A DNA stretch of 64,000 nt from Fidelibacterota bacterium (GTDB lineage: Bacteria; Fidelibacterota; UBA2242), in contig JADHYC010000001.1 of NCBI GenBank assembly GCA_016782645.1, positions 16,579 through 80,578 on the forward strand, read 5' to 3'. The notes under the pieces are model-generated. The model worked only from the letters and a program-made list of their open reading frames with translations. It searched no databases and had not been told where the DNA came from. The position numbers and the translations under genes are program-made. The stretch's first letter is position 1; every line of letters begins with the position of its first letter. Positions 11,245 through 45,300 of the stretch are shown here, piece by piece.

Positions 11245-11339
11245 ATGTTATTTATAATGAGAGTTTTAAAAGTAATTTCCCTTTTACTGGATGCCGGTCA
11301 CTAAAGAGAGGCAATGAAGTTTTTAGACATCCTGGAGTT

Positions 11340-20738: not shown

Positions 20739-20994
20739 GGTTTTGGAAGATTTAATCAAATAATTCACCCTGGCTTACCTTAGGTTTACCTTTAGAAGGA
20801 GAAAGTGCGAAAAACCTCGCTGTTTCTTAATAAGAATAAAACCATATAAGATATCCCATCCACCTTATGCTGCTATATATAAAAGATTTTCAATTTTTTA
20901 TGAATATATTATATATGAAAATACAGGATTAGAAAAATCCCTCTTTGAATTGTAAAAGTTGCTTAGTAATTTTTATAAAGGAGGTGAAGTAGTA

Positions 20995-21377: not shown

Positions 21378-21512
21378 AAAAGATAGTTAAACACATTTTT
21401 ACAATCAATATTTTGCAGTACTGGAATGAATCGAAAAAATTAAATAAAAGATGGTTGTTTTTAAGATAAATTATAATAATGATTTTGGAGGGAAATTCAT
21501 TTTATACAAAAT

Positions 21513-21871: not shown

Positions 21872-22211
21872 TTGAGAATATTTTTAAGTTTATTTGTAAT
21901 AGGGGTGGTAGTTATTTAAGTTTTAGTTCTTTTTGGAAGTTAGATTTTTCAAGGAGATATTTTCTATTTTTTCACATTCTTCTTAAATATATTGAACATG
22001 CAAAAATTAAAAAAACCATTGAGTTTTCATTTTCATATTTATCACATCTGTGATCTATATTAGAGTTGAGAGATTGAGTATGAATATGGGAAAAGTTAAG
22101 AGAATTTCGGTGTTAATGAGAAAAATTAAAATAGTTTAAAATTTAAACTTCAATAGTATGCAAAATAATTACAATACAATTCTAACTGTATCACTATAGA
22201 ATTATTATATT

Positions 22212-23399: not shown

Positions 23400-23521
23400 T
23401 TGTAAATCCATAAAATATTTCGTTATTAATGTCTTATTTGATCGCATAATACTTTATCTTTTTACTTAATTATATTACAGTTGGAAAGTATACATTTATT
23501 CAATAGTGAAGGGAAATCCAA

Positions 23522-23965
23522 ATGAGTGAACAGAAATATAAAGAGTTGAAAACTCGTATTGTTGAGCTTGAAAAACAGTTAAAGGAAAGTAGAAATATTG
23601 TTAACAGGCTAACAGAGTCAGAGAAACATTATCTTTCCTTTTTTGAAAATAGTTCTGAAGGGATTTGGTGTTTTGAAGGGGACCCTATACAAATAAATCT
23701 TAATGAAGATGAAATTATAAACCGTATCTACTCTAATGCGCTAATGGTTGAGTGCAATGATACAATGGCAAGAATGTATGGATTTGAAAAGAGGGAAGAT
23801 ATTTTAGGGACACGACTTGAAAATCTCCTTGTTCCTACAGATGATAGGAATATAGATTATTTAAAAAGTTTTATACAAAATGGTTTTCGTCTGGTTGACG
23901 GTGAATCGCATGAGCCTGATGCTGAGGGTAAGGTTCATGTATTTCTAAACCAATCAAAATGTTAG
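23522..23965 (+). CDS. Stand-alone PAS-like domain protein with an N-terminal coiled coil
   Basis: N-terminal coiled coil (KELKTRIVELEKQLKESRN) followed by a PAS-like region (HYLSFFENSSEGIWCFE...). It overlaps the downstream receiver gene by 7 nt (ATGTTAG). Confidence 0.45.
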   Translation: MSEQKYKELKTRIVELEKQLKESRNIVNRLTESEKHYLSFFENSSEGIWCFEGDPIQINLNEDEIINRIYSNALMVECNDTMARMYGFEKREDILGTRLENLLVPTDDRNIDYLKSFIQNGFRLVDGESHEPDAEGKVHVFLNQSKC

Positions 23966-24333
23966 TTGTAGATGATGAATCTGCTGCAAGAGATTTGCTC
24001 TATGATATGTTAATAATGGAGAATCATGAGGTTTTTAAAGCAGCAGATGGAAAAGAAGCTCTGGAGATATTTAAAAGAGAAGGTGACATAAAAGTTATCC
24101 TTACAGATTTAGGAATGCCTGGGATTTCAGGATGGGAATTATCGGAACAGATAAAGAAGATTGATCCAAAGACAGTGGTTGTAATGATAACAGGCTGGGG
24201 ATTTCAAATAGATTCTGAGCGGGTGGCAAAATGTGGCATTGACCGAGCTATAGTAAAGCCTTTTCAGGTGGAACAGGTTTTTAATTTGGTAGCGGATTGT
24301 GTGAAAATAAGAAGGCAAAGAGAAAATGAGTAA
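23959..24333 (+). CDS. Single-domain response regulator (CheY-like receiver)
   Basis: MLVVDDESAARDLL...ADGKEALEIF...VILTDLGMPGISGWEL...AIVKPF has the acidic pocket DD, the phospho-acceptor D in LTDLGMP and the conserved K in VKPF. Confidence 0.8.
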   Translation: MLVVDDESAARDLLYDMLIMENHEVFKAADGKEALEIFKREGDIKVILTDLGMPGISGWELSEQIKKIDPKTVVVMITGWGFQIDSERVAKCGIDRAIVKPFQVEQVFNLVADCVKIRRQRENE

Positions 24334-24366
24334 GCTTATGACACAACTATCTATCGAAAGATTAAA

Positions 24367-29900: not shown

Positions 29901-30569
29901 ATTCGCTGGACAGCATTTATGGTTACTGCGATTGGTTGGGATGGATGGTCGTACTGGGATTCAAATATTAAAGCCGGTTTTTCTGAAGATAATCTTCCTC
30001 CGGAAACACCGACCAGTTTGACAGGATCACTCAGTGAAGGTAGTGTTGCTTTATTCTGGGAAGAAGTCGTAAATGAGCCAGTCCAATATTATACTATTTA
30101 CAGAAGACTGGAGAATGAACAGTTCGTTCCTATCGGCTATTCAACAGAACCAGAATATTCAGATACAGAACTGATTGGTTCGGAGGTGTATTATGCCGTA
30201 TCTGCAACTGATTATGGCTTAAATGAATCTCCAAAATCCAGTGAAATTAGTGTTACAATTACTGCTATTGATGGCGGTATTGAGATACCGGATGAGTTTG
30301 CCTTGAAACCGAATTATCCTAATCCGTTCAATCCGGAGACGACAATTGAATTTGCTTTGCCAGAAAATAGTAAAGTAACATTGACCGTCTATAATCTGAA
30401 GGGTCAGTTTATTAGAGAACTTGTTAGATCTGAATATAATGCTGGTTATCAGCGTGTTGTTTGGGATGCACGAGATCAATATGGAAATGCTGTCGGAAGT
30501 GGTGTGTATATTTATACAATAAAAGCGGATAATTTTACACAAACGAGGAAGATGGTTCTACTGAGATGA
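26934..30569 (+). CDS. Large secreted T9SS cargo protein with multiple carboxypeptidase-regulatory-like (CarbopepD_reg / Cna-B-like) beta-sandwich domains, an FN3-like domain and a type-A T9SS C-terminal sorting domain
   Basis: Signal peptide. Repeated GYV.D..G.P...A.V motifs (GYVTDENDNPVPDIRVYANTG, GYVYDKDGIGINNARVELYGP, GVVTDAATNNSIPGALVF, GSVVDDVGIPLRNVFIYWES). The T9SS sorting domain is LKPNYPNPFNPETTIEF...VYNLKGQFIRELV...GVYIYTIKADNFTQTRKMVLLR. N-terminal H/K repeat HIGKMHPGKMHLGKTG. Confidence 0.65.
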   Translation: MKEVFMKKIAIILFSLLFVVSIVFGADSDLTLERIQKSRMLKSAFSTIGQEQKVSVEERAIPGMDRRAHIGKMHPGKMHLGKTGNESIQSQKWVMPKKLFQGGKNSLSSGLLKASQFEESDTLVIDFIETDTIQYIPGDIIVFQIVSFDSVLIEPYVDNGDGIFNSDTDLLVEGPDMEEEIWIVDGDEDDETPPGDGVWQVTFNTGGLEEGNFFGLQGMTLFISATEKTSQNQGLGVCCIERPDENTSISGSVMIEGDPMVPAADMIVLAFQKNWFGDGDNGSPDVGFTTMTDDTGYYLIEIPDTLRGEFVVFAFDFWNFYPGYFADPEMMTLPVMGDIPDVNFVLREASETIYGYVTDENDNPVPDIRVYANTGPHYVEDTTDVSGYYVLPVFPGWWRVEVEEDDLIGDYMIPNEQHLEVFEDGDHPADFILYSVDGYIEGTVTYQDGNPAQGIEVEAGIYLGWEEGEYWTYSETDEFGNYTLMVSKALQGREIWDNGYDSTYSWITSYWVSIWEEDDIVVPREYWDIFADTTGLDFTIYMSDAMLSGYIYDSVTDFPLGEAGIHAFSKDSTDGAVPPMDVWDWTEGDGYYELPLIGGAPPDGKLWNIEVFWPHAWIPSVVDTLIVFSGNNYTQDYYIKPPVMQGLVEGYVYDKDGIGINNARVELYGPDYFETWTDEGGYFRIEDLRFGWYNATAYAPDYEPNTIYDIWVGPEPVWLKFWMGSAVGNIFVNGVVTDAATNNSIPGALVFALGEFWMAVSGTDSTGYYEFWLKPGFYDFQAGANGFLADYLEGVEINQDTTINFELGYATIADTAKGSVVDDVGIPLRNVFIYWESDPYPPTYIGYTYTDFDGKYEIGLPSGDYNVMFWKEGFNDEYRWLENFPTNQLEDPVVMWPHTWVFGPEIKSVGDVPDDHGKQVRLTWERAEGLEGTVMEYLIWRAIEPPSGPDPNPDQYHPNWDYVASVSVHPAMGMYHYVAPTLYDKVGDEIRWTAFMVTAIGWDGWSYWDSNIKAGFSEDNLPPETPTSLTGSLSEGSVALFWEEVVNEPVQYYTIYRRLENEQFVPIGYSTEPEYSDTELIGSEVYYAVSATDYGLNESPKSSEISVTITAIDGGIEIPDEFALKPNYPNPFNPETTIEFALPENSKVTLTVYNLKGQFIRELVRSEYNAGYQRVVWDARDQYGNAVGSGVYIYTIKADNFTQTRKMVLLR

Positions 30570-30593: not shown

Positions 30594-30621
30594 AAAGGGC
30601 AGGGAGACCTGCCCTTTTTAT
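30594..30621 (+). terminator. Rho-independent terminator after the 26934..30569 gene
   Basis: aaGGGCAGGGagaCCTGCCCtttttatt is a GC stem followed by a T-tract. Confidence 0.6.
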
Positions 30622-30796
30622 TGTGTGGATTTTAAAAATAATATGATTTATTAATTTACAATTGTATATAGTCTTATCTATTCTATCATGAGTGAAATCT
30701 TTAAAAATGTAATCTGGGTCAATAAATTAAGTAGTGCTAATTTTTCATCTTGTAAAACAGAATGAGATTTTATATTTTTGCGTCTGTTTAAGTTTA

Positions 30797-32377
30797 ATGG
30801 TGAAGATGAAAAATAGTATTACAAAGATGATATTTGTTACGAGTCTATTTCTTTTATGGGCTATTAATATCTATAGTTTTCAGGATGTGAGCCTGGTAAG
30901 AATAAAACTTTCTGAGCCTTCTGATATGACAATTCTGGTGAAGATGGGAATAGATATTGCTCGATTTAAAGCTCCTGGTGAGGTTGAAGCCTGGGTAACA
31001 GAAGTTGAATTTGAAAAAATTTCAACGGAGGGCTTTGATATAGAGTATATTCCGGATCTTGCAAAGATTTACGCCGATAGTCTTGAGAAAGCCACGCGTA
31101 ATACAAGTAACCCAATGGATGATTATCACAACTATGATGAGTTAACGACCTTTTTAAATAATACTGTCGATGATCATCCCAATATATGTCAGCTAATATC
31201 AATTGGAACAAGTGTTCAAGGAAGAGAACTTTGGTTCATGAAGATTACTGATAATCCAACAGTTGAAGAGTCGGAGCCAGAATTCAAATATATTGCAAAT
31301 ATGCATGGGAATGAACCTGTTGGCAGAGAGTTATGTCTTTATTTGATAGATTGGTTAACAGATAATTATGGGACTAATACCAGAGCGACATATCTTGTAG
31401 ATAATGCTGAAATCTGGATTATGCCATCAATGAATCCTGATGGTTTTGAACTTCACCAGCGGTACAATGTACAAGGTGTTGATCTTAATAGAGATTTTCC
31501 AGATAGAATTAGTGACCCTAATAATACCACTGATGGAAGAGCACCCGAAACTCAAGCGGTCATGAACTGGGCTTTTCAACATTCTCATATCCTTTCTGCA
31601 AATTTTCATACAGGAGCGCTTGTAACAAATTATCCTTATGATAGTAACGAAAGTGGAAATAATGTATATACAGCCTGTCCAGATGATGCGCTTTTTATTG
31701 ATGTTTCTTTATCTTATTCAATTCACAATTCCCCTATGTATAATAGTCCTTATTTTGATCAGGGGATAACTAATGGAGCAGATTGGTACGTTATATATGG
31801 TGGTATGCAGGATTGGAATTATGAGTGGCAGGGCGACTTTGAAGTAACTATAGAGCAATCAAATACTTTCTGGCCTCCGGCATCTCAACTTCCATCATAC
31901 TGGGCTGATAATCAGGAATCAATGATCAGTTATATAGAAAGTATGTTCAGGGGGATAAAGGGAATAGTAACTGATGCCTCAACCGGACTTCCTGTTGCAG
32001 CGTCAATAGAAATTGTGGGAATAGATCACAAAGTGTATACTGACCCGGATGTTGGTGATTATTACCGGATGGTTATGCCCGGAACTTATGATTTATTGGT
32101 TGAAACAGACGGATATGAGCCCCAGATAATTGAGAATGTTATAGTGAATGAGCAAGAACAAACTATCGTTGATATTCAATTTGGTATTACATGTATTCCT
32201 GGTGATGTGAATAATGACGGTGAGATTAATATTGCCGATATTGTAAAAATAGTTCAATTTATTTTGATACTGGATATACCAGATGATTATGAATTTTGTG
32301 CTGCGGATTGGAATTTTGATGGTGTTATTAATGTGCAGGATATTGTCGGAATTGTTCAGTATATTTTGAACCAATAA
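30797..32377 (+). CDS. Second secreted M14 zinc carboxypeptidase (paralog of 24367..26655) with a CarbopepD_reg-like domain and a C-terminal type-I dockerin; no T9SS sorting domain
   Basis: M14 motifs ANMHGNEPVGRE (HxxE), NPDGFE, VDLNRDFPD and ANFHTGALVTNYPYD. Dockerin GDVNNDGEINIADIVKIVQFIL...ADWNFDGVINVQDIVGIVQYIL. The ORF opens at 30734; the likely start is ATG 30797 or 30806 just before the signal peptide MKNSITKMIFVTSLFLLWAINIYSF. Confidence 0.8.
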   Translation: MVKMKNSITKMIFVTSLFLLWAINIYSFQDVSLVRIKLSEPSDMTILVKMGIDIARFKAPGEVEAWVTEVEFEKISTEGFDIEYIPDLAKIYADSLEKATRNTSNPMDDYHNYDELTTFLNNTVDDHPNICQLISIGTSVQGRELWFMKITDNPTVEESEPEFKYIANMHGNEPVGRELCLYLIDWLTDNYGTNTRATYLVDNAEIWIMPSMNPDGFELHQRYNVQGVDLNRDFPDRISDPNNTTDGRAPETQAVMNWAFQHSHILSANFHTGALVTNYPYDSNESGNNVYTACPDDALFIDVSLSYSIHNSPMYNSPYFDQGITNGADWYVIYGGMQDWNYEWQGDFEVTIEQSNTFWPPASQLPSYWADNQESMISYIESMFRGIKGIVTDASTGLPVAASIEIVGIDHKVYTDPDVGDYYRMVMPGTYDLLVETDGYEPQIIENVIVNEQEQTIVDIQFGITCIPGDVNNDGEINIADIVKIVQFILILDIPDDYEFCAADWNFDGVINVQDIVGIVQYILNQ

Positions 32378-32703: not shown

Positions 32704-32885
32704 AAAAGGACGATTTCATATATTTAAGGCACATGTTAGATGCCATTTCTAGAATGTAAAAGTATATTCACGGCACAGAATACGAAAGCTTTATGGAGAA
32801 TCATCTTATACAGGACGGAGTAATAAGGCAGGTATTATGTTCTGGCTTAGTCTGTTGCCGAGAAAAGAGAAGGAGTAGTCTGTGA
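32700..32885 (+). pseudogene. Decayed HepT-like (DUF86) toxin gene, partner of the MNT remnant (ATGA overlap; in-frame TAA after codon 19; 3' end truncated or diverged)
   Basis: MKKDDFIYLRHMLDAISRM*KYIHGTEYESFMENHLIQDGVIRQ... matches HepT N-terminal helices (cf. DFIYLRHILDAI...FEEFLENELIQDAVIRNLEIIGEA). It then diverges and runs into the next gene's start. Confidence 0.5.
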
Positions 32886-33550
32886 ATAATAAGCTAAAAA
32901 TTATGCTTCCAATTATTGCTCTTCTTTTTCTGTGGGGTTGTGCAGCTCATCCTACGATTAGTCCTGTTCCCTTAAAGCGTGGTGAAACCTACACCGGAAT
33001 CACTTTTTCTGTAGAAAACGTATTTCCTGTTTTTGTATATAGAAAGGGTTTATCTGATATCAGCGACGTAGGTTTTCGTGTTGGTTTACCTATTTATGGT
33101 AGCGGTGTAGATTATTCGAGAATAGTATTTCAGCGTGGAGATATCTATGATGTAATAAACATAGGTTTTTCCTGGACACCAAATTCGAATTTGGATTTGA
33201 CATATTATACAGTAAGAACCTTTCCCAAGAAACCCGGAAACGCTTTTTATACAGGTTTTAGAGGAATGTACATTCCTAATGGCATTAGTGATAGAGAGAG
33301 TGTTCGAGTTGGAATGTTGGTTGGTATTTCTATTGAAGAGAAATGGGGATTGGAGTTAGGTTATTTTCATGATTTTGATAAAGGACAGCCTATTGAATAT
33401 TTGTTTAACCTTGAACCTAAAAACGATCCACGTTATCCTGCAGTAACTGATTATGGTTTGCCGTCAGAAAATTCAAGATTGGTTGGTTTATCTTTGCAAC
33501 TTTCGTTGAATACGAAAGTTTTTTCAAAAAGGGACAGAAGCAATAAATAG
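32882..33550 (+). CDS. Hypothetical lipoprotein
   Basis: Signal plus lipobox (MLPIIALLFLWGCAAHP). It is Gly/aromatic-rich with alternating hydrophobic residues and a C-terminal Phe-containing tail, so it may be a small outer-membrane beta-barrel. GTG start at 32882, or ATG at 32903. Confidence 0.45.
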   Translation: MNNKLKIMLPIIALLFLWGCAAHPTISPVPLKRGETYTGITFSVENVFPVFVYRKGLSDISDVGFRVGLPIYGSGVDYSRIVFQRGDIYDVINIGFSWTPNSNLDLTYYTVRTFPKKPGNAFYTGFRGMYIPNGISDRESVRVGMLVGISIEEKWGLELGYFHDFDKGQPIEYLFNLEPKNDPRYPAVTDYGLPSENSRLVGLSLQLSLNTKVFSKRDRSNK

Positions 33551-33621: not shown

Positions 33622-36600
33622 ATGAGAAAAAGAATTTTTCATCTGATAACACTTGTTATTCTTTTATGCTTTACAGTGGAAATGTCATTTGCTTCCGCTG
33701 AACTTGTTGTTAAAGGGGATTCTAAGCTTATTATTGAACTGGATCAAGTTTCCAGTGATGAAACAGCAGTTGAGCTTATAGAAAATAGTTATCAAAAAGT
33801 CGCTATGATTTATAAGTTTTCAAAAATCCAAAGTTTTAATGTTGTATCTGAAAAGGGGATATTTACGGAGATTATAATTCCAAAAGCTCATTATATTGGC
33901 AACATCGGTACACCAAAACTCCCGGCACTTAAAAAATTGATTGAAATCCCTTTTGGTGCTAAAGTATCTATTAATGTAAAAAGTTATTCAACAATTGAAT
34001 ACAAGTTAAGTAATTGTGGTATCAACAATCCACTCCTACCTGTTCAACCTTCACTACCTAAGAATATTGATCCTCGTTCCGTTGATTTTGTATATGATAT
34101 TGATTCATATACGGTTGATGAATTCAGACAATATGAAATAGCTACTGTCGAAGAGTTAGGTGTGCTCCGTGGTGTTCGTTTTGCCCGGGTAGTTGTTGCC
34201 CCTGTTCGTTATAACCCTGTAAAGGGAGTTATTAAAGTATATAATAATATTGAGGTTGAGATTAACTTTTCAGGCAGCGATATTGATCTGACTGAATACA
34301 TTAAAGCTTCTACTTATTCACCGTATTTTGAAGCAATATACAGAAAGATTATTAATTATAAAGAAAGAGAACACGGTTATCCAGATCACCCGGATTTAAC
34401 TAAATATCCTGTAAAATATTTAATTGTTGCCGATAGAATGTTTGAAAGTCAATTAGAACCTTTTATCGAATGGAAATCACAGAAAGGATTTACAGTAATT
34501 GTCACTTATACTGATGTTATTGGTACTTCATATAGTAATATTCAAACATGGATTCATAATCAATATAATTCTGGAACTCCTGCAGATCCGGCTCCAAGTT
34601 TCGTACTATTTGTTGGAGACACACCGCAAATTCCTGCAGAAACAGGTTCTTCCAGTGGAAAAGCCACAGATTTGTACTATTGTAGTGTAGACGGTGACTA
34701 TTTTCCTGAAATGTATTATGGAAGATTTTCTGCGACTACCGCCGATCAACTGCAACCTCAGGTTGACAGGACACTATATTATGAGAAATATCAATTCTCT
34801 GATCCATCATTTTTAGATAATGTTACATTGATTGCAGGAGTAGATCCGTATTGGAATCCAAATGTTGGTCAACCGACAGTTTTATACGGTACAGAAAATT
34901 ACTTTAATGTATTGCATGGGTTTAATGATGTTCATGTATATCTTGACTCTTATTCCGGATGCTACGAAACAATTAATGATGGGATCAGCTTAATCAATTA
35001 CACCGCACATGGCAGTCAAACATCCTGGGGAAATCCCGGTATGTCACAATCTGACGTTAATGCATTAACAAATGATGGAAAATATCCATTGGCTATTGGT
35101 AACTGCTGTTTATCAGGGGATTTTGGCTATTCGGAATGCTTTGGCGAAACATGGCTAAGAGCAACAAATAATACAACTGGTGAGCCAACTGGTGCAATAG
35201 GATATATTGCATCAGCTCCTTCTTCTTATTGGTTTGAAGATTTTTATTGGGCAGTAGGCGCTTTTCCAATAATAGGAGACAATAATGGCTATGTCCCTCC
35301 TTATGATTCGACTTCATGGGGTGCCTATGATGCTCCGTTTGTAAGTGATTATGTTACCCAGGATGCTTTAAACTTCGTTGGTAATCTTGCGGTTACAGAG
35401 GCTGATATTCAGGGATATCCAACTCATGTTACAGGTTCAAGTGCACTCTATTACTGGCAAGCATATAATCTGCTTGGAGATCCGTCAGTCGTTGTATATA
35501 TGACTCAGGGTGAAAATAATAATGTAAGTTTTGACGGTTTATTACCAATTGGTTCAACAAGTTTTACCGTTAATGCTGAGCCTGGCTCCTATGTAGGTAT
35601 TTCGATGAATGGAGTTTTACATGGTGCTGGTTTAATAGGTGAATATGGGACGGCTAATATACCGATAACCCCGTTTACTGTTGCAGGCACCGCTGATATT
35701 ATTGTAACAAAACCTCAGTATAAGCCAGTTTTTACTACTGTATTAGTTGCTACACCTGCAGTGGTTGGTATTAATCCTGATTCAATTTCTATTAATGTTT
35801 CAACAGAAGTAACCATTTCTGTTTATGAAGAAGATGGAACTACTCCCATTTCAGATGTAGATGTCTGGATTGAAGGATGGGGTGTTGATTCTGAGATTTT
35901 AAGTGGTACGACGAGTGGTTTGGGTGAATTAAGTTTTTCAATAACCCCTCCTTATGGAGAACGACTCAGAGTGATTGGTAAAAGACCGGTTGACAATTAC
36001 TTGCTTTTTACCAAATATATATATGTGACCGATGGTATAGATTTAACAAATGCAAATATTACTCCTAGCGTTGCATCAATTGGGCTTTTTGGTTTATTAA
36101 CACCCTATTATGAAGGACTGATTACTTCTACATGTGATGAAGCTGAAACAGTACTTTTTGCAAGAGGCTGTGGTGTGGATACATCAGTTGTGGCAACAGA
36201 GGTAAATGTAATTCCCGATGAAGTTGGTATAATTTCCGCCGCAATAGCAAAAAGCGGATATAATGTGTATGAAGAAGATATATTAGTTGAAACTGTATAT
36301 GGAACACTAAGCGGAATTGTTCGCGATGAATCCGAACAGGGAGTTCCGGAAGCAGCAATAAAAGGATTTTTACAATCAAATCCGGAAACACCTGCATTTA
36401 CTGCTATTACAAATTCGCTAGGCCAATTTACAATAGAAGGCGAACTGGAAATCGGTTATTACCAGGTTGAGATAGAAAAGTTTGGTTTAGTGCCATATTC
36501 AGAGGAACATTTTCTTCAGTATGGAGCAAACAGCTGGTTCCTTGATTTAACTGGTGCACCCAGCGGCACTGTTTCCGGCACTGTTACCGAAGCAGGCACG

Positions 36601-39075
36601 GGAGTAGCTTTAAATGCCACGGTGAATATTTACAGAGAAGAAAATGAAGAGTGGATTTTACATACTTCAGTAAATACGGTAGCAACAAGCGGTGGAATTT
36701 ATTCTGTTGATCTGCCTTATTATACCTATCTATTTAAAACTACTTCAGCTCATCATGTCCCGAAAACCTTAACAGTTCTTGTAAACAGTGCTTCTCAGAC
36801 AGTTGATTTTGCGCTTGATCCCACAGCTGGAAATATTCTTGTTATTGATGATGATTCAGGGAAAAGAAATATAAACAAAGTAGTTGACGCTGACGGAAAT
36901 TTGATTTCCGAAGAAACTGAAGTTGTTTTTTCGGAAAAGGGACAGTCAGCTAATGAAATTTCTCAAGCATTAATAAGTCTGGGATATTATGTAACTATTG
37001 AAAATGCCGGTTCAAGCAATCCTGATACATGGCTGGATTATGATTTAGTTATTTCATCTTCCGGAGCAAATAGTGACCCTGTCAATGATGATACTTATCG
37101 TACAAATCTTAAACAATATGTAGCAGAAGGCGGAAAACTGCTTATAGAAGGTGGTGAGATCGGCTATGATATGTGTAGTTATTCAGGAGACACAGAATTT
37201 GCAACAAACGTGCTGCATGTAAGTGATTGGAAAGCGGATAATGCCGGTGCTTTTAACCAGGAACTTCCCGATCATGCGATTTCTTCAATTCCAAATAGTA
37301 TTCCTGTATGTCTATACATTGATTATAATAGTTACGGAGACGAAGACGCGTGTACGCCTACTTCGGATGCTTATATTGTTTATAGTAATAATGAAAATTC
37401 AGCACACGCCGGAATCATTGTTTATGATGATAATGAAGTAGATATTAGCGCCCAGACAGTATTTTATACCTTTGCATATCCAAAATTATCTACTGCTGAA
37501 AACAGGGAAGATCTGCTTGAAAATACAGTGCTTTATTTACTTACACCTGAAATACAGGGTTCCGGTGTCTTAACCGGTACTGTTGACCTTATTGATTCTG
37601 ATAATGATGGCGGTGCTATAGTGGAAATTCTCGGAACAAATTTCGAAACAACAACAGATGTAAGCGGAGATTATGTGATCAATGATATTTATCCGGGAAC
37701 TTTTTCAGTAAAGGCATCTAAATTCGGATATACAGTCCAATATATAACAGAAGTGGTAATTGCCAATGATAGTACTACTGAAAATGTTGATTTCTTTTTA
37801 CAGCAGCTGCTTGTGGTCTTCTTTGATGATTTTGAAAATGGGACTTCTCAATGGAATTTGGAAGAGTCATGGGGATTGACAGAGAGTAGTTATTTTTCTG
37901 CTACTCATAGTTTAACAGATAGTCCGGAAGGAAATTATATAGGTAATTCTGCAGGTTGGTCAGCGTCAATGGCAGTACCGATTAATATGGAGGAATGTAC
38001 ACAGGGATTATTGAGGTTCTGGCATAAATATGAATTAGGAGCCGGAGATATGGCGAATGTGGAAGTGAGTGGAGACGGATCGTTTTGGGAAATTGTAAAA
38101 ACTTTTTCCGGAATACAGGAGGATTGGGAACAGGTAAATCTAAATTTATACTCTTATACAGGTTATGACTTTTTATGGGTAAGATTCAGGATGTCTGCCA
38201 ATGCAATGGATAATCTTGACGGATGGTATATTGATAATGTTGAGGTGATGCTTGATGCTGGTTCAGCTTTGGTCAAAGGGGATATTAATCAAGATGGGAA
38301 TATTGATGTTGCGGATATAGTCAAAGAGGTAAATTTTATTCTTAATACTGGTGAGCCGCCAACTCCGGTAGAGTTCTGGTGTGCCGATATGAATGGAGAT
38401 CACCAGATCAATGTTCTTGATATTGTTGAATTAGTAAATATCATTCTGAATGAAAAAAGTATGGCCAAAAGAGCCGGTAAATCCGCTACAAAATGTGAGA
38501 TTATTCGCAGAGGAGATGTGCTTTATTATAATTCGGATGGTGATGTAGCTGGCTTAGAACTCCACTTAATTGGAGGCAATAAAAACTCTATTACAGTTTT
38601 TCCTGAATTAGTAATCGAAAGTGCAGTTTCACAGAAAAATGATCAGACAGTTGTTCTGCTGTATAGTATGGATGAGAAAGTGCTGCCTGCAGGTGAGAAT
38701 GCACTGATGACTATTTCAGAAGGAATGAAAGTAAAATCGGTTATTGTATCAGATATTTTAGGGAAAAAAGTTGAAACTTATGTTAGAGAATTACCAACCC
38801 AATTTAGTTTATATCAGAATTATCCGAATCCCTTTAACCCGACTACGAAGATTGCTTTTGATATACCAAAATCCACTTATGTAACATTAACGATTTATGA
38901 TATTTTGGGAAGGACAATTAAAGTGCTTATAGATCAGGAATTTAAATCCGGAAGTTACGAGGCTATCTGGGACGGGAGAAATAGATATGGTGTTCAAGTA
39001 GCGTCCGGGATTTATTTCTATTCGATTGAGTCTACCGATTTTAACAAGATAAAAAAGATGATTCTTGTCAGGTAG
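33622..39075 (+). CDS. Peptidase C25 (gingipain-like) family cysteine protease, 1817 aa, carrying Ig/CarbopepD-like domains, a MAM-like domain, a type-I dockerin, a cohesin-like module and a T9SS C-terminal sorting domain
   Basis: C25 hallmarks FVLFVGDTPQIP, KATDLYYCSVDGDYFPEMYYGRFS and the catalytic His/Cys region YTAHGSQTSWGNPG...PLAIGNCCLSGDF. MAM-like ...DGWYIDNVEVM. Dockerin GDINQDGNIDVADIVKEVNFIL...ADMNGDHQINVLDIVELVNIIL. T9SS sorting domain LYQNYPNPFNPTTKIAF...IYDILGRTIKVL...GIYFYSIESTDFNKIKKMILVR. Confidence 0.8.
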   Translation: MRKRIFHLITLVILLCFTVEMSFASAELVVKGDSKLIIELDQVSSDETAVELIENSYQKVAMIYKFSKIQSFNVVSEKGIFTEIIIPKAHYIGNIGTPKLPALKKLIEIPFGAKVSINVKSYSTIEYKLSNCGINNPLLPVQPSLPKNIDPRSVDFVYDIDSYTVDEFRQYEIATVEELGVLRGVRFARVVVAPVRYNPVKGVIKVYNNIEVEINFSGSDIDLTEYIKASTYSPYFEAIYRKIINYKEREHGYPDHPDLTKYPVKYLIVADRMFESQLEPFIEWKSQKGFTVIVTYTDVIGTSYSNIQTWIHNQYNSGTPADPAPSFVLFVGDTPQIPAETGSSSGKATDLYYCSVDGDYFPEMYYGRFSATTADQLQPQVDRTLYYEKYQFSDPSFLDNVTLIAGVDPYWNPNVGQPTVLYGTENYFNVLHGFNDVHVYLDSYSGCYETINDGISLINYTAHGSQTSWGNPGMSQSDVNALTNDGKYPLAIGNCCLSGDFGYSECFGETWLRATNNTTGEPTGAIGYIASAPSSYWFEDFYWAVGAFPIIGDNNGYVPPYDSTSWGAYDAPFVSDYVTQDALNFVGNLAVTEADIQGYPTHVTGSSALYYWQAYNLLGDPSVVVYMTQGENNNVSFDGLLPIGSTSFTVNAEPGSYVGISMNGVLHGAGLIGEYGTANIPITPFTVAGTADIIVTKPQYKPVFTTVLVATPAVVGINPDSISINVSTEVTISVYEEDGTTPISDVDVWIEGWGVDSEILSGTTSGLGELSFSITPPYGERLRVIGKRPVDNYLLFTKYIYVTDGIDLTNANITPSVASIGLFGLLTPYYEGLITSTCDEAETVLFARGCGVDTSVVATEVNVIPDEVGIISAAIAKSGYNVYEEDILVETVYGTLSGIVRDESEQGVPEAAIKGFLQSNPETPAFTAITNSLGQFTIEGELEIGYYQVEIEKFGLVPYSEEHFLQYGANSWFLDLTGAPSGTVSGTVTEAGTGVALNATVNIYREENEEWILHTSVNTVATSGGIYSVDLPYYTYLFKTTSAHHVPKTLTVLVNSASQTVDFALDPTAGNILVIDDDSGKRNINKVVDADGNLISEETEVVFSEKGQSANEISQALISLGYYVTIENAGSSNPDTWLDYDLVISSSGANSDPVNDDTYRTNLKQYVAEGGKLLIEGGEIGYDMCSYSGDTEFATNVLHVSDWKADNAGAFNQELPDHAISSIPNSIPVCLYIDYNSYGDEDACTPTSDAYIVYSNNENSAHAGIIVYDDNEVDISAQTVFYTFAYPKLSTAENREDLLENTVLYLLTPEIQGSGVLTGTVDLIDSDNDGGAIVEILGTNFETTTDVSGDYVINDIYPGTFSVKASKFGYTVQYITEVVIANDSTTENVDFFLQQLLVVFFDDFENGTSQWNLEESWGLTESSYFSATHSLTDSPEGNYIGNSAGWSASMAVPINMEECTQGLLRFWHKYELGAGDMANVEVSGDGSFWEIVKTFSGIQEDWEQVNLNLYSYTGYDFLWVRFRMSANAMDNLDGWYIDNVEVMLDAGSALVKGDINQDGNIDVADIVKEVNFILNTGEPPTPVEFWCADMNGDHQINVLDIVELVNIILNEKSMAKRAGKSATKCEIIRRGDVLYYNSDGDVAGLELHLIGGNKNSITVFPELVIESAVSQKNDQTVVLLYSMDEKVLPAGENALMTISEGMKVKSVIVSDILGKKVETYVRELPTQFSLYQNYPNPFNPTTKIAFDIPKSTYVTLTIYDILGRTIKVLIDQEFKSGSYEAIWDGRNRYGVQVASGIYFYSIESTDFNKIKKMILVR

Positions 39076-39341: not shown

Positions 39342-42300
39342 ATGTGTAAGAGGTCTTTGTTAGTTGTATTTTTAATTTTTGTTTTGTTGTTGAGTTTTGG
39401 CTTTGCGGAGAATAGTGTTTCCAATAATGTGGTTAAGAAGTCAGCAGAAGTTGAGATTGTTCTTAACAAATATTTCGGCGGAGAAGAGCTTACTATTAGT
39501 GAAAAACAGATGATTGCTCCTTTCATTGAAATTAATCATAATCATCTAACTAGAAACCTTAGATCAAAAGAGGTTGTTTTAAGTGAGGACTTCTCAGGTG
39601 GAGTTTTACCTACTGGATGGACCGTTTTGGAAGGTTCTTTAAGTAATGTTGATTGGGATTTCAGTGCTCTAGATGCTACATGTGATTGTAGTAGTTACGG
39701 TGATTATGCACAGGATACATTGATTTCTCCAACAATTGATTGTTCATCATATTTAGGTCTTCGATTAAATTTTTACCAAGATTATGATGCATATTCTTAT
39801 GGAGATGTTACGACTCAAGTATTAATTTCAAATGATGGTGGAGCAACATGGATTGTTCTTTTGGATTATACAGGTATAGATCATTTAGCTGAAAACGTAG
39901 GTCCGGTTGATATTAGTACTTATGCCGATGGAGAGGCAAATGTAAAAATTGCATTTGCATATGAATCTGATTTTGGATACCATTGGACTATTGATGATAT
40001 AGTTATTGATACTCCTCCTACCGAGCCTATTATGGTTCTCAGCACCTATTCCATTGATTTTGGGAATGTTGGAGCGGAGGTTGGAAAAGAAACTGTTTCT
40101 GAGAAAGTGTATGTATCTAACAATGGCGGTGGAACGTTAAATATCACTGGTTTTACTTTAAGCTCTGCTGACCTGTCTGTTGATTCTACTTCTTTAACTG
40201 TAGAACCCGGTGTTACCGATTCTTTTGTTGTTTCTTTTGCTTCTTCCACAGCAGGTGTTTTCAATGGAAAAGTTACAATTGCAAGTAATGATGCTGTAAG
40301 CACAGATACAATAGCAGTTACAGCCACGGTAATACCAGCTGGTTATGTAGTAGAAAGTTTTGAAGATGACTTTCCGCCTCAAGGCTGGGATAGAGTTGGT
40401 TATACTTCCAGTTACTTAGATGGGTGGTATGAAAATACTTCTTCTTCTTATGTCTATGATGGTTCAAAATCTGTAAAAGCTAAAGGTCAAAATAGCTGGT
40501 TATTTACTCCTAAGCTTACCATTTCTACTGGTGATTTTATCACCTTTTACTATCGTTCAGAAAGTTCGAGTTACCCGGCAGGTTTGAAACTCAGAATATC
40601 AACAGGCTCGGATCAGATGGATACAACAGGATATACAGCAGTTCTATGGGAAGATGATAATGTTGATGAAACTGAATATCAGAAAGTTACATACACTTTT
40701 GATGCCACTTATGATGGACAGGATGTTTACCTTGCTTTTCAGAGAAATTGGGCTACTTCTAATTATTACTATACTTATGTTGATTATGTCACTCATCCAC
40801 CAATCTACTATCCCGAAGTTTCTTCAATTCTAATATCAGAGATTGTGGTTACCCCAACAGCAGGAGAGTTTGTTGAGATATATAATTCTAATATATATGA
40901 AGTCGATTTATCCAATTATTACTTAACAGATGCAACCTATGCAAGTGGTGGAGCCTACTATTACAATATCGTAACTGGTTCCAATTATGGTGGTGGTAGC
41001 TCCGCGGATTTCCATGCTCGGTTCCCGGATGGTGCTACTATTGCTGCGGAAGCATATCAGACTATTTCAATGGCAGGAAGCGAAGATTTCCTTGCTGAAT
41101 ATGGTGTAGATCCTGATTATGAGTTATATGAAGATGGTGCATCTGCCGATGCTATTCCCGATATGCGTGAGGCAGTAGCTGGAAGTATTAATAATCAGGG
41201 TGGATTGACCAATGGCGATGAAGTTGTTATTTTGTACTATTGGGATGGTGAAAGCGATCTGGTTATGGATTCCGATTATCTACTGTGGGATGATGGTGCA
41301 GAGGTACCTAATGAAGCTGTTGATAAGACTGGAGTAACTATTGACGGACCTGATGCCGATACAGATGTTTCAGCTTATTTAGATGATACTCCTATCGCAA
41401 GTCAGGATTTTGGAGTAAGCCCGGGCTACGGCTTTTCACTTCACAGAATAGATTATACCGAGGGTCTTGAAGCACAGGCAGATGGTAATGGAATTACAGG
41501 GAGCGATGAAACGAGCGAGAACACGAGTGCAACTTTTGCTATAAGCCTTCCTACTCCGGGAGCAGATGCGCAGCTTGATATATATGAACCTAATGATATT
41601 CTTAGTGCTGCAACTGCTATTACAGTACCGGATACGATAGTCGGACCGGAAATTAATCCTGATGGCGATGTTGATTGGTTCTCTTTTGCGGCTGATTCAG
41701 GTAGTTATTTAATCCTTGATTTATTTATTGATGGCTTCTCAAGTTTGGATGGCGAAATTGCCCTATTTTATAGTGATAGTGTAAAATTGGAATCCGCTGA
41801 CTCGTATGGTAGTGGTAGTGATGAAGAAATAGAATATTTTGTTGATTCCACAGGCACCTATTATGTTGCTGTTGCTCATTATTCTGATTTAAAAGATGAT
41901 CGTGCTTATACAGGAGCATACGCATTAGGAGTAAGTGTGGAAACAGAGTATGATCCCTGTGCGGATTATCCTGATCTAAATGAGCCGAATAATGACGTTG
42001 CAAATGCAACAGTAGTTTATGCAGATGATTCTCTTGCAGCAGCACTTTGTCCGACTGAAGACCTTGATTATTACTCTATCACAATTTCTGATGATGGATT
42101 ACTCTATGCAGAAACTCATCCAGGCGCAGCAGGAGACTATGGTACTGACACATATATGTACTTATTAGGCTCAGATGGAACTACTGTGTTAGATGAAGAT
42201 GACGATGCTGGCGATGGATTTACATCCTATGTCGAAGCGGAAGTTACTGCCGGTACGTATTATGTTCTTGTTGAAGTTTCTTCATATGCTGCTGGAGATG

Positions 42301-45300
42301 TGTTTGATTATGGCGTTTCATTTGGGCTTTATATACCACCGGAAGTTTATCCGCCGGCGAATTTTACGGCTTATCCCGGTGACTCGAAGGTATATCTTGA
42401 CTGGGATAGACCTGTCCCTGGTAAAGGTGGGAATTATTCCAGGTTCTCTACTCCGATTGAAAGAGATAGAATGTCTCTCAATATGAACTATGAACCTAAA
42501 AAATCTAAAGATATTACCGGGTCTGCCATTAACGTAGTTGGTGGTTATATACCAGGGGAAACTCAGGATTTACAATTCGCTATTAATATAGTTTCACCCG
42601 ATTATGAATGGTCTGACTCAGTCAGTATGACATTCCCTGCCGGTTTCACTGTAAATTCTGCAAGTGACATTGATGGAGAAGTCTACAACGGCACAGATGG
42701 ATCACTCGTTGAATGGGGCGATAATGATAACAGTTCGGGAGGAATAGTAACAGGAACTACACTTTTTACTGTAAATGTAACCGTTGACGCTGGTGTAACA
42801 GGTGAACAAACAATTAATTATCATATCAGTGGAGACGAATATGGTGCAGTACCTAACTTTGTTGATGGTTCTTTATTAATTAATGAAGGTGGTGGATGCG
42901 AAGATGATGAGTATGAAGATAATGATGATTATCTAAATCCTGCTGCAATGATACCTGGTTTATACGAAGATCTTATGCTGTGCTATATGGATGCCGATTG
43001 GTATTCAGTAATGGTTCCAGCCTATGGTTCAATAACTGTTACTACAGAAGATACAGTTGGATTATTTGACCTGCTTCTTTTCAATCTTGAAATTGATGCC
43101 AGCTATGCTATTGATTATATGATAGACAGTACTGAGATGATTGTATCGTATGTATCTATACTGGATCATGAATCGGAATTTCTTGTCGCTGTAAGAGATT
43201 ATGATTGGAATTTTGGTTCAATGGCTCAAGGTCCTTATGATATGAATATTGTGGTGGAAGAAGCTGAAGTATACACATACGATATCTATTCTGTTGACAA
43301 AACATTAATTGGAAGCACAACAGAGACGGAATATCTTGTAACTGAATTGACTAATGGTGTAGAATATTGTTTCTATGGCAAAACTGTTAATGAAGCAGAA
43401 ATTGAAAGTCCACCATCTGATACAGCATGTGCAACTCCTGAACCAGCTTTACTATGCCCGCCTGTCGGACTTACTGCTGTTCCGGGAGATACATCAGTTT
43501 ACCTTTCCTGGTCAGAGCCGGAACCACCGATGCCGCCGTGTTGGGATTTTGAGATTGATGCTTTACCCTTTGATCATATCTGGTCGAATATAGGTGCAAC
43601 GGATGATTTTGATGTGGACCTCAGTGACGGAGCTGATATTGCATACAAACTGACATTAGACATTCAGACTACACTTGATATTACGCTTTGTGATGCTGTT
43701 ACTGATTATGATACTAAGCTTCAAATTTTCTACGATTGCGAAACTCCATCTGAATTTTATGACGATGATGGTGATTATGATTGTCCTGAAGCGATAGTAT
43801 CTACTAATCCTTCTGAATTAATAGGGATAGTTCTTGATCCGGGCACCTATTTAATTGTTGTTGATGGCTTTTCTGGGTATGAGGGGAACTATGGTATTCA
43901 TGTATCTGAATCGGTAGCAGAAAAATATGTCTTTGATGCGGAAGCGGCAAGACAGTATGAATTAGATAAACTTAGTTCGATGGGACTTTCTGAAGATTTG
44001 ATGCTGCTAGATAAACAGGAAAATCCATGTGGTACATTGCTCGGTTATAAGGTTTATAATTCAGCTGGCGATTCTCTAACCTATTCAACAGTAACTAATG
44101 CATTGATAACCGGTTTGACTAATGATGTAGAATATTGCTTCTATGTGACTGCCGATTATGAGGAAGGTGAATCTTTGCCGAGTGATACAGTATGTGCCAC
44201 ACCGGAAGAACTTGTTCCTCTCCCTCCTGTTAACCTTACAGCAACTCCTTTTGATGAGGAAGTTAGACTGGATTGGGAAGAACCGGGTACAGCACCTCTA
44301 ATTTATTTTGAATGTTTTGAAACATGTGATGGTCCCGTTGGCTGGGGTATGATTATTGAGAATGTAGTTGATAATGGAACTGGTGGTTGGCTCCGAGTTG
44401 ATGACGGAACAACATACGGATGTGGTACGGGAATGAACAATTGTGGAGATGATACTGAAGGACATTGTGTATTTGCTGCCTGGAGTGCTGAAGGTAGTGC
44501 AGTTACTTCCAGATTAATATCACCTCTTATTGACTTAACGAGTGAAACTGCTGCCAACCTGACATTCGAATCTGCATACAATTACCCGGGTGATGCTGAT
44601 TCACCAAATGAGGTTGAGGTTTCGATAGATGGTGGGACAACATGGACGACTGTTTATACTGAAGATCCAACCGTTATTGGTACATGGCATATGGTTCAAG
44701 TTGATTTAAGTACATATGCCGGTTCGCAGATAAACCTCGGCTTTAAATATATTAGCACTGCTGGAAATGCAGAAGGATGGTTTATTGATGATATTGCTGT
44801 AAGAGGTGCATTGGGAAGAACCTTTGCATACAATTTCAGATATAATACGATTGTTGAAAGTAACAAGGATAAGGTTGCAAGCAACATATTATTAACTTCC
44901 GGTAATAAGGAGATTTCCGGAAGTAATATTGTATCGGAAACGGGAGAATATTTTCCAGATGCTACTGATGACCTCTGGTTTACAATTAATCAATCCAGCT
45001 CTGATGTAGAGTTCATTGATGGATTCTCTATGACATTTCCTTCCGGTGTAGTTGTAAACTTTGCCAGTGCGACCGATGGCGGAACTCCATGGAATGGAGA
45101 AACCGGAGATGGTGCAACCATAACCTGGGGTGATATGTCAGGTGGTTCCGGTTGGGGAACAATTGTTGGTTCGGAAGACTTTTCAGTTAATCTATCCACA
45201 GCAGGATTTTCCGGTCCAATGGTTATAGATTATACTTTAGTAGGTGATGGCTACGGAACTGCACCACATACAATTGACGGTCAATTAACACTTTATGAAC

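Follow-up and report, generated by a model that had tools for sequence, protein, structure and literature searches.

The open reading frame at 33622..39075 (plus strand, ATG start, 1817 aa in translation) encodes a cysteine peptidase of family C25 that is probably an active endopeptidase of the Kgp type exported by the T9SS. Judging from the residues of its S1 pocket, its specificity is likely to be for lysine. The catalytic part is followed by a long extension ending in a dockerin, a cohesin-like module and a T9SS sorting domain (Table 1), and the gene is adjoined upstream by the two M14 carboxypeptidase genes pointed out in an earlier sequence-only reading of this DNA (24367..26655 and 30734..32377). 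The window, i.e. the whole stretch of 64,000 nucleotides that was analysed, has a GC content of 0.31-0.41. The identical 1817-aa protein is already present in NCBI from a Marinimicrobia MAG, a source within the FCB group, as had been supposed; the host is of marine type and uncultured.

The reading frame and the motifs YTAHGSQ (from aa 460) and AIGNCCLSGDF (from aa 491) are exactly those given in the sequence-only reading, and a purine-rich GGGAAGG lies directly upstream of the start. The view that the protein is about double a typical gingipain in size does not hold: its size is normal because Kgp itself has 1723/1732 aa (PMC6426963), and the 120 listed homologues range from 1008 to 2203 aa. 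The implied rarity of such a gene is also unfounded. The protein has more than 2600 relatives, in some sediments C25 genes dominate among the peptidase genes with a signal peptide (PMC6752024), and C25 peptidases have been published from Marinimicrobia and Cloacimonetes MAGs. The promoter scan of the window was no better than its shuffles (60 sites found, 62.5 expected from shuffled sequence), and the number of terminator-like sites likewise did not exceed that in shuffles (7 against an expected 8.8); of these just one (30594-30617) lies behind a gene end, that of a 1211-aa gene.

Table 1. Positions of the C25 protein domains and of the neighbouring genes in the window.
Feature	Position	Strand	Remarks
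M14 carboxypeptidase, carboxypeptidase T-like	24367..26655	+	Pfam; InhA-like MAM; C-terminal dockerin (26464-26643); without CTD
M14 carboxypeptidase, carboxypeptidase D/M/N-like	30734..32377	+	Pfam; CarboxypepD_reg; C-terminal dockerin (32195-32371); without T9SS CTD
222-aa predicted lipoprotein	32882..33550	+	lipobox-like LWGC visible
Predicted Sec signal peptide	33622..33696	+	aa 1-25, MRKRIFHLITLVILLCFTVEMSFAS; read from translation by eye
C25 propeptide	33697..34371	+	aa 26-250; Pfam Propeptide_C25 E 2.1e-20
C25 catalytic domain	34372..35505	+	aa 251-628; Pfam Peptidase_C25 E 1.5e-56
Ig-like domain behind the catalytic domain	35506..35757	+	aa 629-712; Peptidase_C25_C E 5.6e-13
Region without family match	35758..36333	+	aa 713-904
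Two CarboxypepD_reg-like beta-sandwich domains	36334..36846	+	aa 905-1075; Pfam CarboxypepD_reg E 4.7e-13, 2 stretches
GATase1-like (ThuA-like) alpha/beta domain	36847..37566	+	aa 1076-1315; no Pfam model
Third CarboxypepD_reg domain	37567..37806	+	aa 1316-1395; best Pfam stretch aa 1318-1393
MAM-like (InhA-like MAM / choice-of-anchor-J-like) domain	37807..38265	+	aa 1396-1548; weakly supported
Type I dockerin, two calcium-loop repeats	38266..38451	+	aa 1549-1610
Compact cohesin-like beta-sandwich	38452..38820	+	aa 1611-1733
T9SS type A C-terminal sorting domain and stop codon	38821..39075	+	aa 1734-1817
2742-aa surface protein	39342..47570	+	Pfam; cassette of dockerin (46680-46847), cohesin-like module (46848-47315) and CTD (47316-47567)

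Catalytic core and lysine pocket

The catalytic domain reaches 192.7 bits with Peptidase_C25 (cut-off 23). The catalytic and Ig-like domains of Kgp (PDB 4rbm) match the protein with E 3.3e-120 and 46.5% identity over 447 aligned positions, the IgSF domain of Kgp being aligned up to aa 712, whereas the match to RgpB (E 7e-36) covers only aa 266-538. The functional residues of Kgp used for mapping were taken from PMC6426963. The alignment places Asp408, His463 and Cys496 (codons 34843-45, 35008-10 and 35107-09) on D388, H444 and C477 of Kgp, and the catalytic His and Cys, described previously as intact, are neither displaced nor substituted. The oxyanion Gly464 (Kgp G445) is retained, and W391, Y512 and H575 of Kgp have identical counterparts as well. 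The lysine pocket S1 of Kgp is made up of D516, which forms a salt bridge, T442, N475, W513 and C476 (PMC6426963); the corresponding Asp540 (codon 35239-41), Thr461, Asn494, Trp537 and Cys495 are all identical. The only changes among the mapped residues are A451G, Y517F, I478L and N510S (Kgp numbering). The triad, Gly464 and the S1 pocket are invariant in all 120 listed homologues. The alignment to RgpB and Kgp that had been proposed as a check thus confirms the catalytic residues and assigns the S1 determinants to the Kgp (Lys) type.

The propeptide scores 73.1 bits with Propeptide_C25 (cut-off 22) and matches the pro-domain of Kgp (PDB 5mun) with E 2.9e-39 over aa 47-245. Its Lys147 (34060-34062) belongs to an invariant PxQPSxxK motif, aligns with the Lys of HQPSMSK in Kgp and is a lysine in 120/120 listed homologues. 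The propeptide residue Lys129 of Kgp is presumably the lysine placed in its S1 pocket. By homology, Lys147 would probably occupy the S1 pocket in the same manner, and the propeptide would hold the zymogen latent.

Could the protein instead be an Arg-specific (Rgp-like) or broad-specificity gingipain homologue? A preference for Arg is usually taken for granted in environmental gingipain-like peptidases, for which Arg substrates serve in assays (PMC6752024), and A451G, Y517F and N510S are departures from the Kgp pocket that speak against Lys specificity. We nevertheless regard this alternative as quite improbable: the match to Kgp is far stronger than that to RgpB, the Lys-binding Asp540, Thr461, Asn494 and Trp537 are those of Kgp, and the propeptide residue at the position of the Kgp lysine is never Arg among the listed homologues. 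In RgpB, Asp163 is said to bind the substrate Arg and Glu152 reportedly serves as the third residue of the triad; the Asp163 position is taken by Thr419 in the present protein, as in Kgp, and the third triad residue is Asp, also as in Kgp.

It is hardly credible that the protein is a catalytically dead adhesin whose C25 domain merely binds a ligand, in spite of the very long non-catalytic C-terminal part with its binding-type modules. The triad, Gly464 and the S1 pocket are complete, and their invariance across the 120 homologues indicates purifying selection on catalysis; the conserved propeptide with its invariant Lys likewise indicates that latency is needed. This interpretation was rejected on the grounds of residue conservation. 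More remote still is a PorU-like T9SS sortase (a C25-related remover of sorting domains) in place of a nutritional protease, rejected on score since the weak NCBIfam match to PorU_rel_Nterm (E 4.9e-09, aa 449-534) gives 34.9 bits, where 450 are required, and is confined to the conserved His-Cys region, and since the gingipain propeptide, Kgp-level similarity and the Lys pocket are present.

For the Kgp-type endopeptidase, which we prefer, the following course of events may be suggested. The signal peptide, in which a basic N-terminus, a hydrophobic core and an Ala-rich end can be recognized by eye in the translation, would direct the zymogen into the periplasm by the Sec route, and the type A CTD would then provide for T9SS export and attachment to the cell surface. 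The triad Asp408/His463/Cys496 would cut after lysine, the side chain of which would be gripped by Asp540, Thr461, Asn494 and Trp537. The T9SS sorting domain recognized earlier is well supported, with both TIGR04183 (31.8 bits, cut-off 23) and Por_Secre_tail (28.2 bits, cut-off 27; aa 1734-1814 of 1817) above their cut-offs at the extreme C-terminus. The window holds two further CTD proteins, and no T9SS machinery genes are found within its 64 kb.

Domains of the C-terminal extension

The stretch between the end of the Ig-like domain (aa 712) and the start of the MAM-like domain (aa 1396) amounts to ~680 aa and not to the ~900 aa previously proposed. It had been thought to consist of Ig-like and CarboxypepD_reg-like domains. 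The CarboxypepD_reg copies are indeed there (three in the Pfam scan of the protein, the segments within aa 905-1075 matching the third copy with up to 97.9% probability in hhalign), but ~240 aa (1076-1315) of the stretch form an alpha/beta domain that the earlier inventory overlooked. The region of aa 713-904 matches no Pfam family even at E 10, and hhalign profiles of segments from aa 707-905 gave no convincing match with the Ig-like and CarboxypepD_reg segments; the region is common to 59-70 of the 120 top homologues.

The overlooked domain (aa 1076-1315) has a GATase1/ThuA-like fold. Among 24 aligned copies of it no invariant or near-invariant Cys is found that could be the nucleophile of a Cys-His-Glu triad, and the conserved motif is L-x-EGGE-x-GY. 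The domain is therefore not an amidotransferase, as the conserved nucleophile is missing. It has 335 cluster representatives and is unannotated, so that a new family could be defined for it.

The MAM-like assignment of aa 1396-1548 is weak. InhA-like_MAM reaches just 17 bits (E 0.0045), whereas 26.9 are needed for Pfam, and NCBIfam choice_anch_J does not match the C25 protein. On the other hand, the region resembles (E 4e-13) aa 529-691 of the M14 enzyme at 24367..26655, which Pfam recognizes as InhA-like_MAM with E 1.1e-15. Taken together, the middle part would be a row of non-catalytic spacer or binding modules, namely beta-sandwiches, the GATase1-like domain devoid of the nucleophile Cys and the MAM-like domain.

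Cleaved_Adhesin (PF07675) is absent from the whole protein at E<=0.1 and from its sub-segments at E<=10. The haemagglutinin/Cleaved_Adhesin domains are a trait of P. gingivalis Kgp and RgpA and not of family C25. PF22904, assigned to some homologues by precomputed data and marked "faint" there, was ignored, since direct Pfam scans did not reproduce it.

Dockerin-cohesin cassette and neighbouring genes

The dockerin is confirmed by Dockerin_1 (27.4 bits, Pfam cut-off 22.9), by a match to the PDB dockerin 4dh2_B (E 3.1e-4) and by two calcium loops, DINQDGNIDVAD and DMNGDHQINVLD, both visible in the translation. The four dockerins of the window (those of the C25 protein, the 2742-aa protein and the two M14 enzymes) are closely similar and have both DxNxDGxIN/DxxD loops in common.

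The assignment of aa 1611-1733 as a cohesin-like module is likewise sustained, by its cohesin-type beta-sandwich fold and by its homology to Pfam-positive cohesins located at the same cassette position. With eight strands and ~105 ordered residues the module falls short of classical cohesins in length, and its Foldseek TM-scores are just 0.37-0.52. Pfam Cohesin (PF00963) does not match aa 1605-1740 even at E 10. The profile of the module found no cohesin among the PDB sequences and gave chance matches only (GFP, Brat); for this reason its cohesin identity is not demonstrable from sequence alone. Three homologues (P0282, P0321 and P0278), retrieved with the longer dockerin-cohesin-CTD query rather than with the module by itself, carry at the same place a domain above the Pfam Cohesin threshold; P0282 aligns with the module end to end (E 9e-41), and P0321 matches it with 97% probability (hhalign). 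The cassette occurs in ~15 of the top 120 matches at >=85% query coverage, and in the Bacteroidales loci L050 and L059 it is found on three consecutive genes. In every cassette seen the dockerin and the cohesin directly adjoin in the same order. The linker between the two is short (~15 residues).

The 2742-aa neighbour has four stretches of NCBIfam choice_anch_J (E 6e-53). Its cohesin-like module was aligned with the other eight modules and is found by the resulting HMM with E 6e-36, a partly circular value, as the sequence is among the nine from which the HMM was built; it was missed when the C25 module alone served as a single-sequence phmmer query. The M14 enzyme at 24367..26655 matches carboxypeptidase T from PDB with E 4.3e-59. 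The nearest PDB entry to the one at 30734..32377 is domain II of duck carboxypeptidase D (1h8l, E 1e-91), with CPM and CPN also matched; enzymes of the carboxypeptidase D/M/N subfamily take off C-terminal basic residues. The 222-aa lipoprotein has no match in Pfam, NCBIfam and PDB. It is 62% identical to the product of the gene in the same position in a second organism (L080), where the order of M14-dockerin, small lipoprotein and C25 genes is kept.

The cassette, repeated on the 2742-aa neighbour, places the dockerin and the cohesin-like module before the CTD. Its most likely use would be a calcium-dependent cohesin-dockerin assembly of neighbouring enzymes at the cell surface, and a Lys-cutting C25 peptidase would supply Lys-ended peptides to the carboxypeptidase D-like M14 enzyme. 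Assembly of the C25 protein with the M14 enzymes in particular is proposed here only tentatively. It speaks against such an assembly that the M14 enzymes, which have no T9SS CTD, would have to reach a surface-anchored cohesin in a cell with two membranes.

It is also conceivable, if somewhat unlikely, that the cassette builds no multi-enzyme complex and serves either as a structural unit capping itself within the chain or only for multimerisation of the protease, the M14 enzymes being periplasmic or released independently. This would agree with the direct adjacency of dockerin and cohesin in all cassettes, with M14 enzymes lacking a sorting domain, and with the recognition by Amy4 of its own dockerin (PMC4611034). 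However, the close resemblance of the M14 dockerins to those of the cassettes suggests that they have a partner in common, synteny of the M14-dockerin and C25 genes is seen in two organisms, and the short linker may hinder folding back.

Comparison with known systems and significance

The order of signal peptide, propeptide, catalytic domain, Ig-like domain, long extension and CTD is the same in Kgp of P. gingivalis (PDB 4rbm, 4tkx, 6i9a, 5mun), and the triad, nearly the whole S1 lysine pocket, the propeptide Lys and approximately the length (1817 vs 1723/1732 aa) are shared. The difference is in the extension, where CarboxypepD_reg, GATase1-like, MAM-like, dockerin and cohesin-like domains are present in place of the haemagglutinin/Cleaved_Adhesin ones, and in the host, an environmental Marinimicrobia MAG as opposed to an oral pathogen. 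With RgpB (PDB 1cvr, 4ief) the protein shares the C25 fold, the His and Cys positions, the propeptide and the CTD; it differs from it in the Thr at the Asp163 position and the Asp where RgpB has Glu152, as well as by the much weaker match.

The environmental homologues (P0002-P0120) come from Cloacimonadota, Lentimicrobiaceae/Bacteroidales, "Eisenbacteria" and Marinimicrobia MAGs. They are 54-70% identical to the present protein across the first 715 aa, with identical catalytic and S1 residues. CarboxypepD_reg and GATase1-like domains are present in many of them and the dockerin-cohesin-CTD cassette in few, and the C-terminal modules are shuffled (CUB, CARDB, P-domain, fn3). The same full architecture is seen, among the listed homologues, only in P0002 (53% identity, 100% coverage).

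A dockerin-bearing gingipain-like C25 peptidase and a CTD-anchored cohesin scaffoldin were described in the Cloacimonadota member "Ca. Stygibacter" (Williams et al. 2021, PMC8542988), for which a cellulosome-like, T9SS-CTD-anchored surface complex degrading polypeptides was proposed in an FCB-group anaerobe. There the enzymes carry C-terminal dockerins and the tandem cohesins are located on a separate 3755-aa scaffoldin (PMC8542988), while in the present case the protease itself bears dockerin, cohesin and CTD in a single cassette, and no multi-cohesin scaffoldin is found within the window. An enzyme with both a cohesin and a dockerin is Amy4 of Ruminococcus bromii, whose cohesin binds the dockerin of Amy4 as well as dockerins from other enzymes (PMC4611034). 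Amy4, however, is a Gram-positive amylase with a sortase-type scaffoldin anchor, whereas the protein considered here is a protease of a two-membrane cell with T9SS anchoring and predicted modules only.

The C25 protein belongs to a very large family and is nothing out of the ordinary within it, environmental C25 peptidases, dockerin-bearing ones included, are already published, and the present findings overturn nothing in current understanding. C25 genes rank with the most abundant genes for exported peptidases in anoxic sediments, where their products are treated as Arg-specific (PMC6752024). Since all 120 closest listed relatives have the Kgp lysine pocket and the propeptide Lys, a large environmental clade may be Lys-specific, and in that case the choice of fluorogenic substrates reporting C25 activity would change.

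The cassette and its synteny with dockerin-only carboxypeptidases provide a concrete, testable case, small in scale, of how cohesins and dockerins may assemble on a Gram-negative surface decorated by the T9SS. A broader proposal, which we consider unlikely, is that the cassette anchors T9SS cargo in general and assembles by itself, giving a scaffold-free surface "proteolysome" that captures dockerin-only enzymes. The T9SS exports folded proteins, so dockerin-only enzymes might cross the outer membrane bound to a cassette protein. If this proposal is true, the cohesins of the C25 protein and of the 2742-aa neighbour would capture enzymes having no sorting signal, and the captured carboxypeptidase D-like enzyme would trim the C-terminal lysines made by the C25 peptidase.

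Domain organization of the C25 protein

The ORF of the gingipain-family peptidase (C25 protein; aa numbering refers to it) starts with ATG, has a purine run GGGAAGG just 5' of it and gives a product of 1817 aa. Translation places YTAHGSQ at aa 460 and AIGNCCLSGDF at aa 491, which bears out the ORF, the coordinates and both motifs quoted in the sequence-only reading. Six domain types are assigned to the protein by Pfam (see the table), and the type A T9SS C-terminal sorting domain (CTD) is recognized by NCBIfam TIGR04183 as well (31.8 bits, cut-off 23). Because of these Pfam and NCBIfam scores the observation is real and far above chance. The earlier domain calls, the difficult cohesin one among them, were largely right.

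Features of the C25 protein (aa) and genes of the protease region (nt of the window)
Feature	Position	Evidence or remark
Propeptide_C25	aa 50-218	Pfam E 2.1e-20
Peptidase_C25	aa 266-624	Pfam E 1.5e-56
Peptidase_C25_C, Ig-like domain	aa 632-706	Pfam
CarboxypepD_reg, three domains, beta-sandwiches	aa 905-1075 and 1316-1395	Pfam
Dockerin_1	aa 1552-1608	Pfam 27.4 bits, cut-off 22.9
Por_Secre_tail	aa 1734-1814	Pfam 28.2 bits, cut-off 27
M14a, carboxypeptidase T-like M14; C-terminal dockerin, signal-peptide-like N-terminus	24367..26655	match E 4.3e-59
1211-aa protein, CarboxypepD_reg domains and CTD	26934..30569	
M14b, carboxypeptidase D/M/N-like M14; C-terminal dockerin, signal-peptide-like N-terminus	30734..32377	1h8l E 1e-91
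222-aa predicted lipoprotein	32882..33550	lipobox LWGC
C25 protein, dockerin-bearing	33622..39075	+ strand
2742-aa protein; four choice-of-anchor-J stretches, lamin-tail, PPC, fn3, choice-of-anchor D	39342..47570	cassette like that of the C25 protein

The region of aa 713-904 has no family match and no convincing profile similarity to Ig-like or CarboxypepD_reg segments. Between 59 and 70 of the 120 listed homologues share it, and its Ig-like nature is plausible. The region of aa 1396-1548 reaches 17 bits with InhA-like_MAM, under the cut-off of 26.9; it is similar (E 4e-13) to aa 529-691 of the upstream M14 protein, a stretch assigned to InhA-like_MAM by Pfam (E 1.1e-15). A MAM-like character of this region is weakly suggested.

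Active site and S1 pocket

The top match of the C25 protein among all PDB sequences is the Lys-gingipain Kgp of Porphyromonas gingivalis (catalytic and Ig-like domains, 4rbm; E 3.3e-120, aa 253-712), and the Kgp pro-domain (5mun) matches with E 2.9e-39. The match to the Arg-gingipain RgpB is weaker (E 7e-36) and limited to aa 266-538. Over 447 aligned positions the C25 protein is 46.5% identical to Kgp. In the complex of Kgp with KYT-36 the catalytic triad is C477/H444/D388, with the main-chain N atoms of C477 and G445 as oxyanion hole; D516 makes a salt bridge to the P1 lysine, which is H-bonded to N475 O and T442 OG1 and pinched by W513, A451 and C476, and H575, W391, Y512 and W513 make up the S3 site (PMC6426963).

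These residues were mapped onto the C25 protein through the PDB-search alignment. The triad and the oxyanion residue are Asp408, His463, Cys496 and Gly464, the nucleophile being the second Cys in GNCC. The S1 pocket is composed of Thr461, Asn494, Cys495, Trp537 and Asp540, and the S3 site of Trp411, Tyr536 and His602. All differences at the mapped functional sites are conservative (A451G, Y517F, I478L and N510S, from Kgp to C25). In the RgpB alignment Thr419 sits at the position of RgpB Asp163, as is likewise the case in Kgp; Asp163 was reportedly described by Eichinger et al. in 1999 as the arginine-binding residue. Propeptide Lys147 is aligned with the Lys of Kgp 'HQPSMSK', which by count along the Kgp sequence is Lys129; Pomowski et al. 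reportedly placed this residue in S1 of the zymogen in 2017. Asp408, His463, Cys496, Asn494, Trp537, Asp540 and Lys147 are invariant across the best 120 homologues. The catalytic Cys and His, claimed earlier to be intact, are neither displaced nor substituted in the Kgp and RgpB alignments. The C25 protein is expected to be active, and cleavage after lysine is what its pocket predicts.

The dockerin-cohesin-CTD cassette and its neighborhood

Two calcium loops, DINQDGNIDVAD and DMNGDHQINVLD, are visible in the C25 dockerin. No Pfam family matches the module that separates the dockerin from the CTD (aa 1611-1733), and a profile of this module found no cohesin among PDB sequences. In the Foldseek comparison cohesins take the first 17 places (E 6e-5 to 1e-3); the TM-scores, 0.37-0.52, are modest. 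P0282, a metagenomic fragment, can be aligned over the full length of the cassette (30% identity, E 9e-41) and has at the equivalent position a Pfam Cohesin match of 30.2 bits, above the cut-off of 24.1; the Pfam-positive P0321 is matched by the module profile with 97% probability. This fold and homology bear out the cohesin-like assignment made from sequence alone, and the identification of the module as a compact, divergent cohesin is supported.

Closely similar dockerins are found on four proteins encoded in a 23-kb part of the window: M14a, M14b, the C25 protein and the 2742-aa protein. Both M14 enzymes lack a T9SS sorting domain and a cohesin. The 2742-aa protein may be an adhesin or scaffold, since no catalytic domain was recognized in it. 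A search with the C25 module as single query sequence missed its cohesin-like module, which was detected by an HMM that had this sequence among its nine inputs. For the 222-aa predicted lipoprotein, which matches no family and no PDB entry, roles as anchor, inhibitor or export helper are conceivable.

The sole full-architecture relative among the matches listed, P0002 (53% identity, 100% coverage), lies on a contig of a second organism that keeps the gene order M14-CarboxypepD_reg-dockerin, 214-aa protein, C25. The 214-aa protein (L080, 9313-9957) is 62% identical to the window lipoprotein, above the value for C25 itself, and the M14 catalytic domains share 41% identity. Operon structure was settled by neither the promoter nor the terminator scan. 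The sole strong terminator-like hairpin after a gene end in the protease region (30594-30617; 10-bp stem, 6 GC pairs) stands 3' of the gene for the 1211-aa CTD protein; its position suggests that a separate transcription unit begins with M14b, the lipoprotein and the C25 gene.

The remaining window genes are housekeeping ones (MutS2, DnaG, IleRS, SAM synthetase, HPr kinase, XerC-like recombinase), so the protease locus is chromosomal. Three consecutive genes with signal-peptide or lipoprotein-like starts at 8033-12158 (343-aa without family, 726-aa Big_7/fn3, 272-aa Laminin_G_3) may encode further surface proteins. A 568-aa ORF at 61211-62917 starts like a lipoprotein and matches no Pfam family at E<=1e-5, and stretches of ~1-1.5 kb without an ORF of at least 150 aa lie at 7017-8033, 20738-22212 and 23399-24367.

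Distribution and possible function

An identical protein (P0001) is already present in NCBI on a contig of 118,921 bp as 'MAG: carboxypeptidase regulatory-like domain-containing protein [Candidatus Marinimicrobia bacterium]'. Because it is named for this domain alone, nothing in the public annotation points to the C25 protease, the dockerin or the cohesin. More than 2600 proteins reach E<=1e-10 among 8000 candidates scored. Genome matches with 54-70% identity in the N-terminal 715 aa belong to Cloacimonadota, Marinimicrobia, Lentimicrobiaceae and other Bacteroidales, and the homologue list also has 'Eisenbacteria' and Chlorobi-labelled relatives. In estuarine sediment 41-45% of the peptidase genes with a signal peptide are of family C25 (PMC6752024), which is also listed among the commonly found extracellular peptidases of Black Sea MAGs, the peptidase-richest of which include Marinimicrobia and Cloacimonetes (PMC8359207). 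With so many relatives and such published environmental peptidases, a gingipain in a free-living bacterium is not the unusual feature that it was claimed to be. Nor is the protein unusually large, as had been claimed: the 120 listed homologues, whose C-terminal modules (CUB, CARDB, P-domain, fn3, dockerin) are shuffled, span 1008-2203 aa, and Kgp has 1723/1732 aa (PMC6426963), so its size is ordinary.

The cassette was found in ~15 of the 120 top matches of the cassette query. In two loci from Bacteroidales MAGs (L059, 3-13389; L050, 2-13263) it ends three consecutive genes each, one for an fn3/Cleaved_Adhesin protein and two for paralogous C25 peptidases, and it is therefore not confined to Marinimicrobia. 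Dockerin-bearing C25 peptidases together with a CTD-anchored cohesin scaffoldin are described in Cloacimonadota (PMC8542988).

The sequence and fold comparisons show the order of the domains, intact residues for catalysis and for the lysine pocket, the Lys in the propeptide, both loops of the dockerin, a cohesin fold, the CTD, neighbors with similar dockerins and a conserved synteny. The C25 protein would first be exported by Sec and held latent by its propeptide, then carried out by the T9SS and anchored to the cell surface, where the active enzyme would cut after lysine. The carboxypeptidase D/M/N subfamily removes C-terminal Lys or Arg, and a Lys-specific endopeptidase together with a D/M/N-like carboxypeptidase would form a consistent pathway of two steps. 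Dockerins would be captured in a calcium-dependent manner by the cohesins of the C25 protein and the 2742-aa protein. The main weakness of such surface assembly is that the M14 enzymes, which carry a dockerin but no CTD, lack an obvious way across the outer membrane to a surface cohesin; the dockerin and cohesin that lie side by side might also just bind one another. Amy4 of Ruminococcus bromii, an enzyme with both cohesin and dockerin, binds its own dockerin and those of other enzymes (PMC4611034).

The Kgp-type lysine pocket and the propeptide Lys are present in all 120 closest C25 homologues (P0001-P0120). Arg substrates serve as the proxy for gingipain-like activity in sediment studies (PMC6752024), and the activity of a clade carrying this pocket may be missed for that reason. 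Three modest points are worth following up: the GATase1-like accessory domain of the C25 protein, undescribed so far, the recurring dockerin-cohesin-CTD cassette, and the predicted lysine specificity across the whole environmental C25 clade.
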